Below are positions 8,398 to 12,322 of a DNA stretch of 64,000 bases, piece after piece (position 1 is the stretch's first letter; every line of letters starts with the position of its first letter). The DNA lies in NCBI GenBank assembly GCA_965205975.1, contig OZ242195.1, positions 2,560,001 to 2,624,000 on the forward strand, written 5' to 3'. The notes beneath the pieces are model-generated. The model did not search any database, was not told where the DNA came from, and saw only the letters and a list, made by a program, of their open reading frames with translations. Made by a program: the position numbers and the translations under genes. Source of the DNA: Candidatus Latescibacterota bacterium (GTDB lineage: Bacteria > Latescibacterota > UBA2968).

Positions 8398-9648
8398 ATG
8401 CCCGAAAAAAACAACCCAATTCGCGTGGGCGTCGTTGGTGTGGGACGCGGGCGATCATTTATGCGGGCGGCAGCGCCGACGGGAATGGAACTCGTAGCAA
8501 TTTGCGATACCTGGGAAGAGCGACTAAGACCCGAAGGCAAAGCACTCGGTATATCGACATATGGAGATTACCAGGCATTTTTGGAACACGATATGGATGC
8601 CGTGGTACTCGCCAATTATTTTCACGAACACGCGCCCTTTGCCGTTGAAGCACTGAACGCAGGAAAACACGTCATGAGCGAAACCGCTGCCTGCCATACA
8701 TTGGGCGAAGGCGTCGCACTTGCGCGGGCGGTAGAGCGCAGTGGTAAAATTTATATGTTTGCCGAAAATTACCCCTACACGGCGTACAATCAGGAAATGA
8801 GGCGGCTCTACCAGAAAGGACACGTAGGGGAATTTAAATACGGAGAAGGCGAATACGTACATCCCGATCCACCAGAAGTAAAATTGGGGCGCAGTTGTGG
8901 GCGCAATCACTGGCGCAACTGGATTCCCTCGACCTATTATTGCACGCATTCGATTGCACCGGTAATGTACATCACAGATACGCGCCCCGTAAAAGTAAAC
9001 GGATTTGTCATACCCTACGATTTTGGCGACATGACCAAAACTCTACACATGAACCGCGCGGATACGGCAGGCGTGATCATCTGTCGGATGGACAATGACG
9101 CCGTCATGAAATCCCTGCACGGCGCATTGCGCGGGCACGGCAATTACGTCAGAATCCACGGCAACAAGGGCGTGATGGAAAACTGTCGCAACGGCGATAA
9201 ATATCGGCTGCGCGTGTGGAAAGAGCCGTGGGAAAAGCCAAAAGGAGAACCCGTAGAAACCGTTTATAGACCAGATTTTCCAGTACATCACGACCGCGCA
9301 ACACAGGCCGGACACGGTGGCGGCGACTTCTTCACGAGTTATCATTTCGCCGAAGCGATTCGCACGGGCGAACAACCCTACCTCGATGTGTATCGCGGCA
9401 TCGACATGAGTATTGCGGGCATTCAAGCGTGGCGATCAGCACTCAGTGATTCGGCACCGATGGAAGTGCCCGATTTTCGCAATGAATCCATAAGAAAAAA
9501 ATACGAACGAGATGATTGGTCGCCCGATCCCACACGCAAAAAACTGGGACAACCACCGAGCAGTATTCTCGGCGAAATCGAACCATCCGATGGCGCCAAA
9601 GCACTGGCAAAAAAAGTCTGGGCAAGCAGGGGATACTTTGGAGAGTGA
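8398..9648 (+). CDS. Gfo/Idh/MocA family oxidoreductase
   Basis: VGVVGVGRG Rossmann start, GKHVMSE, AENY, GEYVH, YYCTHS, GHGGGD; start placed at ATG 8398 after GGAG. Confidence 0.88.
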   Translation: MPEKNNPIRVGVVGVGRGRSFMRAAAPTGMELVAICDTWEERLRPEGKALGISTYGDYQAFLEHDMDAVVLANYFHEHAPFAVEALNAGKHVMSETAACHTLGEGVALARAVERSGKIYMFAENYPYTAYNQEMRRLYQKGHVGEFKYGEGEYVHPDPPEVKLGRSCGRNHWRNWIPSTYYCTHSIAPVMYITDTRPVKVNGFVIPYDFGDMTKTLHMNRADTAGVIICRMDNDAVMKSLHGALRGHGNYVRIHGNKGVMENCRNGDKYRLRVWKEPWEKPKGEPVETVYRPDFPVHHDRATQAGHGGGDFFTSYHFAEAIRTGEQPYLDVYRGIDMSIAGIQAWRSALSDSAPMEVPDFRNESIRKKYERDDWSPDPTRKKLGQPPSSILGEIEPSDGAKALAKKVWASRGYFGE

Positions 9649-9658
9649 GGATCTAACC

Positions 9659-10051
9659 ATGATTGAAATAGCACAAGTAGCACTGGCGATTTACGGCATA
9701 TTGTTAATTGTCGGAGGAATTATTGGGAAGACGAAAACCGGGAGTTCTGCATCCTTATTCGCAGGCGCAATCTGCGGTATTGTTGCGCTCGTTGGATACT
9801 GGCAAAGCCTGAGCGATCCCGCCGTTGGGTTTTTGACCGGCGGATTGGTCGGCTTGTTGCTCACGGGCATATTTATGAGCCGATTTGTCCGCACGCGAAA
9901 ATTTATGCCCGCGGGATTGGTGCTGCTACTCAGTCTTCTGGTGGGTATTTTGACAATGATGGCGAGACAGGAATACCTGCTCAATCAGGACAAACCAGTG
10001 GAAGAACTGACAAAAAAGGGCCAGGAACAATGTCCCTGGCCCAACGTCTGA
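9659..10051 (+). CDS. TMEM14-family small membrane protein
   Basis: YGILLIVGG..G..K.GS..SL.AG and RF.RTRKFMPAGL motifs; ATG 9659 after GAGG. Confidence 0.85.
   Translation: MIEIAQVALAIYGILLIVGGIIGKTKTGSSASLFAGAICGIVALVGYWQSLSDPAVGFLTGGLVGLLLTGIFMSRFVRTRKFMPAGLVLLLSLLVGILTMMARQEYLLNQDKPVEELTKKGQEQCPWPNV
10012..10042 (-). terminator. Intrinsic terminator on the minus strand, inside the 3' end of the TMEM14 CDS
   Basis: Minus strand GGGCCAGGGACA-T-TGTTCCTGGCCC-TTTTTT. Confidence 0.75.
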
Positions 10052-10069
10052 AGGGTCACAGCCTGAAAA

Positions 10070-10102
10070 TCAGGCGTTCACCTCCGAGTTAAAATGTTTC
10101 AC
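10070..10102 (-). CDS. Putative 10-aa micro-ORF MKHFNSEVNA (GTG start) within a structured small transcript
   Basis: Strong SD GAAAGGAGGT directly upstream; followed by hairpins and a terminator. Confidence 0.45.
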   Translation of the reverse strand: MKHFNSEVNA

Positions 10103-10206
10103 ATTAACCTCCTTTCGATATGCGCGATCCGCTTCCGGAAAGCGTTTTGCGCGGTGGATGCCAATATATCAGCAAACCGCACCAACCCGTTGGCCCGGTC
10201 ACATAA

Positions 10207-10228
10207 ACACCGGAATGGATGCAGTTTT
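10207..10228. promoter_or_regulatory. 22-bp motif, copy 1 (ACACCGGAATGGATGCAGTTTT)
   Basis: 20/22 identical to 10950-10971; about 105 nt upstream of the minus-strand micro-ORF. Confidence 0.6.
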
Positions 10229-10267
10229 TCAGAAACGCAGTGTACTTTTATCGCGTCTTTTCCAACC

Positions 10268-10302
10268 AAAAACGCCTGAGCTATAACACTCAGGCGTTTT
10301 TT
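10268..10302. terminator. Bidirectional intrinsic terminator after the sigma-region-4 gene
   Basis: AAAAACGCCTGAG-N8-CTCAGGCGTTTTT perfect 13-bp inverted repeat. Confidence 0.85.
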
Positions 10303-10675
10303 AATTTGTAATGGCAATACCGTGTTTGCGGCAGAGTTTGCGAAGTTTTTTCACAGCACCGCCTATGGATTTTCCATTTCGCGTAATACCGAACAGATGC
10401 TGGCTGACCACCCTGCGCGAAATACCCATAATCTCGGAGATTTCCCGCTGGGTCTTGCCGTATTTGAAATACAAAACAGCAGCTTCAAATTGTCTTTGCG
10501 TAAGCGATTGATTTAAGAGCGTATCGATCTGCGGGAAGAGACGCCCAACCCGGTCTTCATATTTATAGCGCAAATTCTGGTCTTCGGGCGACTCGTACCA
10601 CAGGCCAACGTCATCCGGCATCATTTCCAGGTCTGATTGATCTAACTGAACTTCCCAAAAATCAGGATTATACAT
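10301..10675 (-). CDS. Small sigma-70 region 4-like HTH DNA-binding protein
   Basis: LTQRQFEAAVLYF.YGKTQREISEIMGISRRVVSQHL; no sigma region 2. Confidence 0.85.
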   Translation of the reverse strand: MYNPDFWEVQLDQSDLEMMPDDVGLWYESPEDQNLRYKYEDRVGRLFPQIDTLLNQSLTQRQFEAAVLYFKYGKTQREISEIMGISRRVVSQHLFGITRNGKSIGGAVKKLRKLCRKHGIAITN

Positions 10676-10683
10676 ATGTCCGT

Positions 10684-10825
10684 TCGTCTCCTCCAGGGAA
10701 TGAATATGTCGGGCGAAAAACCACCATACATACCAGACCCGCGGCTCCGGAGGGACGATAAAACTGCGACGGACAGATAGTGAATGACCGAAGCAGCTAC
10801 CTCACCGGAGGCGAACCGGGTATGT
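10684..10825 (-). promoter_or_regulatory. Structured 5' leader with alternative helices (candidate translational attenuator)
   Basis: Arm 10800-10825 pairs with 10728-10754; segment 10747-10758 can instead pair 12 bp with the SD region 10684-10696. Confidence 0.6.
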
Positions 10826-10859
10826 TATTAGTCGTAAATGCGAAAATTAAAGCCATCAT
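10797..10859 (-). CDS. Putative 20-aa leader peptide MMALIFAFTTNNIPGSPPVR
   Basis: SD GAAAGGAGG 4-7 nt before tandem ATGs; its 3' codons form one arm of the leader helix. Confidence 0.6.
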   Translation of the reverse strand: MMALIFAFTTNNIPGSPPVR

Positions 10860-10949
10860 GTTGCCTCCTTTCAAATAGACTTATGTAAACGATCACCCGT
10901 AAAACTGCGGGAATCTCACTGCATTGTCAAGACATACCTCCTCGCCCTT

Positions 10950-10971
10950 ACACCGGCATGGATGCACTTTT
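10950..10971. promoter_or_regulatory. 22-bp motif, copy 2 (ACACCGGCATGGATGCACTTTT)
   Basis: 20/22 identical to 10207-10228; about 90 nt upstream of the leader ORF. Confidence 0.6.
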
Positions 10972-10981
10972 GGGCGCCATA

Positions 10982-12322
10982 TCAAAAAGCTTTTTTCTTT
11001 CTCAATTCATCCCACCAATCCATAAGCGCGCGAATGTGCTTTTCATAGCCGCGATCTGTGGGATGATAATAGGTGCGGTCTCTCAAATTATCGGGAAAAT
11101 ACACCTGATCAATATAGCCATCCGGATCGTCATGTGCATATTGATACCCCTTGCCATAATCGAGATCTTTCATAAGCTTTGTCGGCGCATTGCGAATATG
11201 CAGAGGCACGGGCAAATTGGGATGTTTCTCAACATCGGAAAGCGCATTATTATACGCGGCATAAACGGCATTGCTCTTGGGAGCTGTAGCGAGATAAACC
11301 GTCGCCTGAGCAATGGATAGATCGCCCTCGGGACTGCCCAGAAAATCGTACGCCTCGCGGGCATTGAGCGCAACTTGCAAAGCGCGCGGATCAGCAACGC
11401 CCACATCTTCAGAAGCAAAGCGAATCATACGCCTCAAAATATAATGCGGATGCTCACCCGACGCCATCATACGCGCGAGCCAATACAGTGAGGCCTGTGG
11501 ATCGCTGCCGCGAAGACTCTTGTGAAAAGCCGAAATGATATTGTAATGCTCCTCCCCTGTCTTGTCGTAAAGATGAGCCTTGCGACCGAGAATTTCGCGC
11601 ACCGTTTCGGGCGTGGGTTCGCAACCCGTAGCCTCAACAGCCGCAGCAACGGTTTCAAGCGCGTTCAGAGACCGACGGGCATCGCCCTCCGCAGTTTCGG
11701 CAATGAGGTCCAAAGCCTGGTCATCAATCTGTAAATCGGGAAACCCGTGTTCCGAATCGGCAATAGCGCGGTCCAGCACCTGGCGAATATGGGACGTATC
11801 GAGCAAATTGAGCACAAAAACGCGAGTACGTGAAAGCAAGGCTGGATTGACCTCAAAAGAGGGATTTTCAGTAGTGGCACCAATAAGCGTAATAACACCA
11901 TTCTCCACATGCGGCAGAAAAGCATCTTGCTGCGCCTTGTTAAAACGGTGAATCTCATCCACAAAAAAGATGGTACGCCTGCCCAGGCGTCGTTCCTCTC
12001 GCGCCCGCGCAATAATCTCTCGCGCCTCCCGGATCCCCGCAGTAACCGCGCTAAAAGACACAAATCGGCTCTCCGTCGTACCCGCAATAACCCGGGCCAG
12101 CGTTGTCTTGCCCGAACCCGGTGGTCCCCAAAAAATCATGGACGGCAAGCGGTCGCTCTCGATAAGCACCCGAAGGGGCGCACCCGGCCCAACGAGGTGA
12201 TCCTGCCCCACAATATCGTCCAGCACCTGGGGACGCAGGCGTTCGGCCAGAGGCGCGTTTGCCATCTCCTGCTCGGCTTGCGACACGGGTTTTAAAAAAA
12301 GGTCTTCATTCATCAGTCTCAC
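10982..12322 (-). CDS. rarA: Replication-associated recombination protein A (MgsA/RarA)
   Basis: PLAERLRP, WGPPGSGKTT, DEIHRFNKAQQD, GATTENPSF, ISAFHKSLRGSD, APKSNA, PLHIRNAPT. Confidence 0.97.
   Translation of the reverse strand: MRLMNEDLFLKPVSQAEQEMANAPLAERLRPQVLDDIVGQDHLVGPGAPLRVLIESDRLPSMIFWGPPGSGKTTLARVIAGTTESRFVSFSAVTAGIREAREIIARAREERRLGRRTIFFVDEIHRFNKAQQDAFLPHVENGVITLIGATTENPSFEVNPALLSRTRVFVLNLLDTSHIRQVLDRAIADSEHGFPDLQIDDQALDLIAETAEGDARRSLNALETVAAAVEATGCEPTPETVREILGRKAHLYDKTGEEHYNIISAFHKSLRGSDPQASLYWLARMMASGEHPHYILRRMIRFASEDVGVADPRALQVALNAREAYDFLGSPEGDLSIAQATVYLATAPKSNAVYAAYNNALSDVEKHPNLPVPLHIRNAPTKLMKDLDYGKGYQYAHDDPDGYIDQVYFPDNLRDRTYYHPTDRGYEKHIRALMDWWDELRKKKAF

Follow-up and report, generated by a model that had tools for sequence, protein, structure and literature searches.

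The window analysed here comprises 64,000 nucleotides (nt) from a Candidatus Latescibacterota bacterium (contig OZ242195.1, positions 2,560,001 to 2,624,000), and its minus strand carries a gene for a 124-residue helix-turn-helix (HTH) protein resembling region 4 of sigma-70 factors, preceded by a leader with a short upstream open reading frame (uORF). In this leader, the Shine-Dalgarno sequence of the uORF (SD1, with arm A), the end of the uORF (arm B), a downstream block (C), the 3' arm of a terminator hairpin (D) and the Shine-Dalgarno sequence of the regulator gene (SD2, arm E) take part in competing helices (Table 1). The leader is a conserved RNA switch of a known type, the attenuator, which had not been catalogued before for this uncultivated lineage. 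An initial annotation of the locus, made from the letters alone, had placed the uORF's Shine-Dalgarno sequence, the 20-codon frame and four pairing arms, and all of these coordinates are exact on the minus strand.

Table 1. Features of the leader, the regulator gene and their surroundings, in window positions.
Feature	Positions	Strand	Remarks
MgsA/RarA-type AAA+ ATPase gene	10982-12322	minus-strand reading	PF12002, E 3e-70
Intergenic region, 306 nt		minus-strand reading	between the ATPase gene and the 124-residue protein gene
Motif copy 1, AAAAGTGCATCC-N6-GTGTAAGG	10946-10971	-	upstream of the leader promoter
Putative sigma-70-type promoter	10902-10930	-	TTGACA 10925-10930, 17 nt, CAGTTT 10902-10907; weak -10
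SD1 GAAAGGAGG	10864-10872	-	Shine-Dalgarno sequence of the uORF; SD1 plus arm A span 10860-10872
Arm A GGAGGCAAC, segment 1	10860-10868	-	pairs with arm B
uORF, 20 codons + TAG, MMALIFAFTTNNIPGSPPVR	10797-10859	-	
Pairing stretch at uORF end, ACATACCCGGTTCGCCTCCGGTGAGG	10800-10825	-	
Arm B ACATACCCGGTTCGCCTCCGG, segment 2	10805-10825	-	partner of A or of C
Variable hairpin H	10764-10797	-	begins at the uORF stop codon; in minimum-free-energy folds
Block C, segment 3	10728-10758	-	anti-SD2 TCGTCCCTCCGG overlaps GGAGCCGCGGGTCTGGTATGT; covaries with B and SD2
Anti-SD2 TCGTCCCTCCGG	10747-10758	-	
GGAGCCGCGGGTCTGGTATGT of block C	10728-10748	-	
B-pairing stretch CCCTCCGGAGCCGCGGGTCTGGTATGT	10728-10754	-	
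Decayed terminator hairpin and short U run (segment 4 in relatives)	10716-10744	-	-6.7 kcal/mol, 4 U
SD2 region CTGGAGGAGACGA of regulator gene	10684-10696	-	pairs with anti-SD2 over 12 bp, one bulge
Main ATG of regulator gene	10673-10675	-	
124-residue sigma-70 region-4-like HTH protein gene	10301-10675	-	PF04545; conserved start MYNPDFWEV; AlphaFold model
Stem-loop with U (T) runs on both sides, 3' end of regulator gene	10268-10302	-	likely two-way terminator
Motif copy 2, AAAACTGCATCC-N6-GTGTTTATG	10202-10228	-	just past the terminator of the regulator gene
Sister unit, GAAAGGAGG + 10-codon ORF	ORF 10070-10116, unit 10012-10116	-	conserved in 9 genera
Intrinsic terminator of sister unit	10012-10042	-	11 pairs, called by scan

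In the survey of this leader, 70 loci were collected and eight were set aside before counting (the g18 orthologues L062 and L064, L065 from another family, and the five paralogues L066-L070), which left 62 loci with 61 distinct leaders from 15 genera; genus labels (g1, g2 and so on, g1 being the genus of the window) and locus labels (L0xx) are those of the analysis. Although the proteins encoded at the 62 kept loci are down to 47% identical, every one of these loci has a Shine-Dalgarno sequence, an ATG and a uORF of 10-27 codons lying 166-288 nt before the main ATG, so that the leader frame first read in a single genome is retained throughout the aligned homologs, together with helices that show compensatory change. 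In the MAFFT alignment of the 61 distinct leaders (A1), near-invariant stretches are GAAAGGAGGCGAA with its ATG, (Y)CCGCCUCC followed by xGAGG..CUGAC, CCUCCGGAGCCGCGGG, a hairpin closed by GCGG and followed by U5-8, and GGAGGAGA preceding the main ATG; GGAGCCGCGGG in block C is nearly invariant across leaders. By eye, the leader is absent from all eight set-aside loci, and a covariance model covering its 3' domain gave 59 matches in 67 sources, none of them in those eight loci; in the window's genome this model finds a single copy.

The leader matches no family in Rfam, whether searched in the window at E<=10 or across 13 loci at E<=1; the sole Rfam matches were sub-threshold ones to Thr_leader and a small RNA (sRNA), both on the 3' terminator of the regulator gene, and in the open-access literature nothing was found on this leader. 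A long conserved leader with alternative terminator and antiterminator folds is also what would be expected of a metabolite riboswitch whose expression platform combines a terminator with SD sequestration. Such a riboswitch is nevertheless very improbable here, given the lack of an Rfam match in either search, the fact that nearly all conserved bases belong to a Shine-Dalgarno sequence, an anti-Shine-Dalgarno sequence, a start, a stop or the terminator, and the variability of hairpin H, the sole region capable of forming a pocket, which differs among genera in both sequence and length. In one g13 locus (L027), hairpin H is enlarged by an insert of roughly 100 nt in which GTGCCACGT/CACGTG-like units repeat, and arms A-E are undisturbed.

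Comparison of the aligned leaders shows that four pairings exist, exclude each other and are kept by compensatory change: A:B, which joins SD1 to the CCUCC stretch at the end of the uORF; B:C, the alternative to A:B, which joins arm B to the GGAGCCGCGGG block; C:D, which joins the GGAGCCGCGGG block to the 3' arm of the terminator; and C1:E, which joins anti-SD2 to SD2. The strongest case is B:C, whose 21 pairs are 80.5% paired compared with 73.3% in shuffles (0/500); both sides have changed at 17 of the 21 pairs (1/500), and 108 cells are changed on both sides compared with 49 in shuffles (0/500), while controls in slid registers reached at most 45.3% paired. Pair 85:285 of this helix, for example, is GC in 24 leaders, UA in 20, CG in 6 and UG in 6. 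The ten pairs of A:B are 82.6% paired in A1, and five of them show changes on both sides; this helix is perfect in g6 as GGAGGCGAAU:AUUCGCCUCC, is GGAGGCAGUC:GGCUGCCUCU in g12, and in g31 reads GGAGACAGA:UCUGUCUCC as against GGAGGCGAA:UUCGCCUCC, with three both-side changes, or four relative to the window's genus.

The helices downstream were scored in a covariance-model-based alignment of 58 distinct leaders (A3), where C:D and C1:E together (19 pairs) are 80.6% paired versus 78.0% in shuffles (0/500) and carry 39 double changes versus 21 (0/500), C1:E by itself being 85.4% paired. Covariation in the C:D stem is seen as CCGCGGG:CCCGCGG, CCGCAGGC:GCCUGCGG and GCCACGAGC:GCUCGUGGC, and compensations in C1:E as CCUCUCUCCG:CGGAGAGAGG in g31 and GUCUUCcUCCAG:CUGGAGAAGAC in g30. 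An alignment-free control, in which duplex energies of cognate arms were compared with those of arms swapped among 26 lineage representatives (5000 permutations), favoured the cognate partner in every case with 0/5000 permutations: clearest for B:C (-23.0 cognate versus -16.3 kcal/mol non-cognate), and likewise for A:B (-17.0 versus -14.7), C1:E (-17.3 versus -13.9) and C2:D (-13.0 versus -11.3). In the window's genome, RNAduplex gave -26.2 kcal/mol for B:C and -20.0 kcal/mol for anti-SD2:SD2; these two share CCCTCCGG (10747-10754) and are therefore mutually exclusive. The two competing helices named in the initial annotation are thus real, conserved and mutually exclusive as judged by covariation, partner swap, folds and this shared segment, and what that annotation overlooked was A:B and the intrinsic terminator C:D.

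In the relatives of the window's organism, an intrinsic terminator has the GGAGCCGCGGG block as its 5' arm. Outside g1, 39 of 41 leaders have a canonical terminator, with energies from -9.0 to -21.3 kcal/mol and 5-7 U per eight bases, the exceptions being L049, with an interrupted U run, and L063. Within the window's genus this terminator is decayed: 18 of 20 leaders have hairpins of -1.4 to -7.7 kcal/mol with 4-5 U and the remaining two have none, and the window's own hairpin, with its four U in an 8-nt tail, drew no call from the terminator scan. C:D is weakest of all in g1 (-5.3 to -6.4 kcal/mol), A:B is weaker there than elsewhere (-14.6 kcal/mol in the window's genome and -9.7 in the two other g1 representatives), and B:C in g1 (-26.2 to -27.9 kcal/mol) is surpassed by only three of 23 lineages from other genera.

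These helices are probably the parts of a four-segment, trp-like, ribosome-dependent attenuator that is combined with sequestration of SD2. In the proposed scheme, segment A is the Shine-Dalgarno sequence of the uORF (GGAGGCGAA-like), B is UUCGCCUCC with its flanks, C is CCCUCCGGAGCCGCGGG with its flank, and D is the terminator 3' arm followed by the U run, while C1, lying within C, would close SD2 (E). When no ribosome is present, A:B would form and leave C free to make the terminator, and any RNA that is read through would have its SD2 closed (OFF); a ribosome at the end or stop of the uORF would cover B and lead to the same OFF state. When a ribosome instead sits on SD1 or early in the uORF while C is being transcribed, B:C would form, giving neither terminator nor SD2 clamp (ON), and in read-through RNA C1:E would act as a clamp unless B holds C. 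Because segment 1 is the uORF's own Shine-Dalgarno sequence, a ribosome would have to load before B is made, or else the leader locks itself.

Partition-function folds, which are equilibrium calculations in which blocked stretches stand in for ribosomes, are consistent with much of this scheme. Outside g1, the free nascent RNA was predicted to form the terminator in 33 of 41 leaders (probability >=0.78); when the stretch from SD1 to 15 nt past the ATG was blocked, the terminator fell to <=0.25 in 21 of these 33, with B:C at about 0.55-0.73, and when the end of the uORF was blocked the terminator had a probability of >=0.79 in 37 of 41. For the window's genome, the nascent RNA was predicted to fold into B:C and the full leader into A:B plus anti-SD2:SD2. 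The cost of opening SD2 there was 6.0 kcal/mol for the free RNA, 5.0 kcal/mol with an initiating ribosome and 10.4 kcal/mol with a ribosome at the uORF end, so that constraining the last uORF codons is predicted to shift access to the regulator's start, as the initial annotation had supposed. In the window's genus, B:C would thus come first on the nascent RNA, and uORF ribosomes crossing B would let C1 clamp SD2. Since A:B is weakened and the terminator decayed in g1, control there should be kinetic and mainly translational, in the manner of ermC or tlrB.

Several observations weigh against this scheme and against the strength of its support. With SD1 blocked, the terminator is still predicted at >=0.81 in seven of the 33 leaders and at 0.47-0.71 in five, and eight leaders outside g1 fold to B:C even when free. 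In g1, SD2 is predicted closed in all three modelled states (open <=0.43), and any ON state there must therefore be kinetic. The shuffle and permutation controls ignore relatedness, the helices consist largely of a conserved GGAGG/CCUCC core that pairs in any combination, the margins in percent paired are small for A:B, C:D and C1:E (79.0 versus 76.6; 80.6 versus 78.0), and the 326-nt leader as a whole does not exceed its shuffles in stability (z = -0.47). The two g18 orthologues and the one from another family lack the leader, and the uORF peptide is not conserved. Metatranscriptome contigs from four runs in four studies (sponge, coral and an unspecified metagenome; >=90% identity) join leader and gene across the main ATG, covering 10032-11100, 10440-10815, 10328-10762 and 10357-10976; as the contigs give no strand and no transcript ends, and may stem from carried-over DNA, they only place the locus in RNA libraries as one piece. 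For the same reason, the gap in cover at 10816-10885 in one run and the contig ends near 10032 and 10886 were rejected as transcript ends.

The decay of the terminator in g1, the poor -10 box and the prediction that SD2 is closed in every modelled state would also suit a leader that no longer switches, being a relic of an attenuator that damps expression constitutively through the anti-SD2 clamp. Little weight is given to this explanation, since B:C is strong in g1 and is the predicted fold of the nascent RNA, and since 21 g1 species genomes, G000 included, all retain the uORF in its frame along with arms A, B, C and E. As for the promoter, relatives keep TTGACA-N17-TAnnnT at this position by eye (TAGTGT, TAATCT, TATTCT); a consensus promoter scan made no call at the putative leader promoter in the window, where transcription of the leader would begin.

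The uORF itself is constrained in its position and frame rather than in its peptide. In all 61 distinct leaders GGAGG is followed by ATG 3-9 nt on, and the uORFs of one genus share a fixed length (in g7, 14 of 15 leaders have 17 codons); an indel of 6 nt in the window's genus leaves the frame intact. Counted from the last C of CCUCC, the first base of the stop codon is found 11 nt on in 11 genera (for g31, in one of four leaders), while in g1 the distance is mostly 8 nt, being 11 nt in three of 20 leaders. The peptides cannot be aligned between genera, and the only codon run that they share is the S/P-P-P derived from the anti-SD; across genera, no conserved regulatory codons for a cognate amino acid were found in the uORF. 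A frame of xCG-CCU-CCx over the anti-SD block is found in 12 genera, g6, g2 and g10 read the block as GCC-UCC, two leaders of the window's genus (L018, L021) are frameshifted by a 1-nt deletion to CGC-CUC-CGG-UGA, and in L041 and L061 the stop falls just ahead of the block. On these comparisons, selection seems to act on a translated frame closing shortly after arm B, and not on Pro-Pro.

Three g6 leaders (L022-L024) have, as the first ATG after SD1, one directly followed by TGA, which gives the start-stop frame GGAGGCGAAUGUGAUG; the longer uORF uses a different frame and begins at the following ATG, 5 nt further along. The stop context UGA-C/UAG-C was considered as a family feature and rejected, as it occurs in 41 of 61 leaders (42 with one UAA-C) and is the sole or commoner context in only eight of 15 genera (g1, g5, g11, g7, g16, g30, g26 and, through one of two leaders, g10).

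The initial annotation had proposed that ribosome dwell on the Ser-Pro-Pro codons, relieved by elongation factor P (EF-P), sets translation of the regulator, and the switch would then report EF-P or prolyl-tRNA status. In favour of this idea, S/P-P-P lies on arm B throughout g1, g5, g11, g13, g7 and g16 and in one of four g30 leaders, among the 15 genera, and a ribosome paused there would raise the SD2 opening cost from 6.0 to 10.4 kcal/mol. Consecutive proline codons in a leader ORF that overlaps alternative RNA structures are also a feature of Salmonella mgtL and mgtP, the leader ORFs of mgtA and mgtCBR; unlike these, the prolines here lie on an anti-SD arm, are not conserved in the family, and ribosomes stalled on them are predicted to switch the gene off. 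For Salmonella mgtA, EF-P-dependent control exerted by a leader ORF containing prolines is described in the accessible part of one report (PMC6460261), whereas the accessible part of a second report concerns EF-P-dependent translation of mgtB itself and not of a leader (PMC5299641).

Nevertheless, tuning of the switch to Ser-Pro-Pro dwell is quite unlikely. CCG-CCU-CCN is the anti-SD of GGAGGCG read in that frame, and Pro-Pro is simply what CGCCUCC encodes in its commonest frame, so RNA pairing alone explains the prolines; the SPP codons, taken initially as a pause signal, are instead the anti-SD partner of the uORF's own Shine-Dalgarno sequence in A:B. Pro-Pro is missing from g31, g12, g17, g20, g26 and three of four g30 leaders although these have the same frame (reading L-S-P, L-P-L, P-S-P, L-S-L or L-P), and the genera with another frame, the two frameshifted leaders and the two with an earlier stop argue in the same direction. 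With Pro-Pro present in about half of the genera, EF-P sensing is not a property of the family. Moreover, a ribosome paused on proline covers B and gives the same OFF state as one that reaches the stop three codons on (mostly two in g1), so that the prolines add little information and EF-P status is an unlikely input. Of the earlier attenuator reading, the leader-ORF switch therefore stands, and SPP dwell as its tuned signal does not. According to the models, what the ribosome-dependent attenuator proposed here most likely senses is that ribosomes are slow or stalled on the uORF, which is to say general translation status and not one amino acid or EF-P; translation of the uORF and the direction of the switch are, like this signal, inferred.

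In the trp, his, thr and pheA attenuators of Escherichia coli, a translated uORF is followed by segments that pair as 1:2, 2:3 and 3:4, the last being an intrinsic terminator, and the absence of a ribosome or a ribosome at the stop leads to termination, while a ribosome held early allows read-through. The leader described here is like these systems in its predicted uORF, its four segments and its modelled response to ribosome position. It is unlike them in that the place of segment 1 is taken by the uORF's own Shine-Dalgarno sequence instead of a series of regulatory codons, that no run of codons for an amino acid is conserved, that the gene under control encodes a regulator and does not belong to a biosynthetic operon, and that a second layer closes the downstream Shine-Dalgarno sequence. 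This second layer resembles the translational attenuation of ermC and cat, where a helix that closes SD2 has a partner that can pair with a uORF segment instead.

Another example that combines a terminator with an SD clamp in one leader has been described for tlrB (yxjB) of Bacillus subtilis, where, in the accessible part of the report, it is critical when the leader is translated in relation to the progress of RNA polymerase (PMC6851288). In that system, the structure would repress leader-peptide translation as well, and the leader Shine-Dalgarno sequence of Bacillus pumilus is predicted to lie in a weak hairpin; the signal is an antibiotic acting through an RXR arrest motif, and, as far as the accessible text goes, no overlapping antiterminator was identified, the stalled ribosome itself blocking the hairpins (PMC6851288). 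The present leader shares with tlrB, so described, the dual terminator and clamp, and differs in having a covarying antiterminator (B:C), a peptide that is not conserved and a gene that is not a resistance gene.

The protein encoded downstream has Sigma70_r4 (PF04545) as its sole family match above cut-off (29.1 bits versus 24.1, residues 56-94), and no region-2 family is among its Pfam matches. The NCBIfam model TIGR02937, for the extracytoplasmic function (ECF) sigma superfamily, scored 33.2 bits, under its cut-off of 42.9, and covers profile positions 110-155 only. Judged by these domain matches, the protein is not a complete sigma-70 or ECF sigma factor. Its AlphaFold model has a mean confidence (pLDDT) of 82.1, and the top fold matches are sigma region-4 domains, weak and non-significant; since the fold search returned nothing at E<=0.001, it adds nothing beyond Pfam.

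The initial annotation had called this regulator an orphan, which does not fit its distribution: a six-frame search (E<=0.001) recovers it from 51 of 61 related genomes, usually in single copy, among them all 21 sampled genomes of the window's genus (G000 and 20 others), and at E<=1e-15 a phylum-wide sample of 168 genomes has it in 65, nearly all from one class. Nothing points to a mobile element. The start MYNPDFWEV is kept in each of the first 30 loci, a few with one or two substitutions (MYNSDFWEV, MYHPDFWEV, one GTG start). Its sequence and distribution mark the regulator as a region-4-like HTH protein that lacks region 2 and is core across the lineage. A diverged second copy (L066-L068, L069, L070; 37-46% identity) is present in six genomes of the window's genus and in g2, with an N-terminal extension and a different upstream region from which this leader is absent; none is found in the window's genome.

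The unit of leader and regulator gene is flanked by two copies of a motif in the same orientation, and the pattern AAA[GC]TGCATCC-N6-GTGT(A/T) has exactly two occurrences in the 5.56-Mb genome, while the reversed control has none. An upstream copy is present in nearly all orthologue loci, at -273 to -430, and a downstream copy in g1, g6, g5, g13, g17, g30, g20, g26 and g2. By eye, the motif fits neither a sigma-70 promoter, as GCATCC lies 9 nt from a TAnnnT-like end and the spacing is wrong, nor the -24/-12 pattern of a sigma-54 promoter, and the bases around its GTGTAAG pair in some loci and not in others. It could be a candidate operator for the region-4 protein, or an unusual promoter element.

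Beyond motif copy 2 lies a stand-alone sister region (10012-10228), in which about 100 nt of hairpins are followed by GAAAGGAGG and a 10-codon ORF, with no gene after it. This ORF holds an internal GGAGGUG that is read in different frames in different genera, and the hairpin of the unit contains the ORF stop and is followed by a strong terminator; the unit has no Rfam match. In Sinorhizobium meliloti, the attenuator-derived sRNA rnTrpL and the peptide peTrpL have been described (PMC6614838, PMC7968998). Going by the accessible parts of those reports, they provide a parallel in that a leader RNA that ends at a terminator and holds a very small ORF can itself be a product, which is relevant to the sister unit, and they differ in that the sister unit is not followed by a gene and is without a known target in trans.

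The sister RNA contains GGAGGUGAAC, which is complementary to arm B of the leader, and it is a matter of speculation that it pairs with arm B in trans. More broadly, the choice between hairpins might be set in trans, whether by the regulator, by another RNA-binding protein or by the sister RNA through GGAGGUGAAC, with the uORF being incidental or a helper. This explanation would account for the near-invariance of the GGAGCCGCGGG block beyond the needs of pairing, for the unique motif on both flanks of the gene and for the conserved sister RNA adjoining it, and the 3' part of the sister ORF pairs with its cognate arm B at -18.0 kcal/mol compared with -15.9 for non-cognate arms (12/5000). The explanation is unlikely, however, as the ATG, ORF length and stop position are kept although an untranslated arm would not need them, the trans-pairing signal is small, with four of 14 lineages belonging to one genus, no such signal is seen for anti-SD2 (-12.6 versus -13.2), and region-4 HTH domains are, as a family, DNA binders.

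An extension of the ribosome-dependent attenuator, for which the odds are rather poor, would make the whole locus a sensor of translation capacity, in which the regulator, acting through AAAGTGCATCC-N6-GTGT, would control its own leader and the sister RNA, and GGAGGUGAAC would titrate arm B. Under this reading, the regulator would be made only if a ribosome loads SD1 before arm B is made and then lags behind RNA polymerase, and, if true, this would constitute a feedback loop between ribosome availability and transcription. Apart from this extension, the leader adds to the cis-regulatory RNAs a well-supported, uncatalogued family, found in 15 genera and without an Rfam match, from a lineage without cultured members, and would be a natural example of a uORF Shine-Dalgarno sequence serving as segment 1 of an attenuator, where ribosome loading itself is part of the decision. 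Within one family of organisms, it would also illustrate how a single element drifts from transcriptional control to control that is translational only. As the minimal sigma region-4 regulator is framed by a motif unique in the genome, its targets are directly testable.

The stem-loop at the 3' end of the regulator gene, which reads AAAAAACGCCTGAG...CTCAGGCGTTTTT on the minus strand, was called by the terminator scan on the plus strand only (10268-10301, 13 pairs). Beyond it, a 250-nt spacer reaches into a convergent Tmemb_14 gene, and the sister unit is antisense to the end of this gene. The listed Tmemb_14 ORF (9512-10051, plus strand, 179 residues) has a Pfam match restricted to residues 59-145, and its true start is probably further in, at a Met near residue 49.

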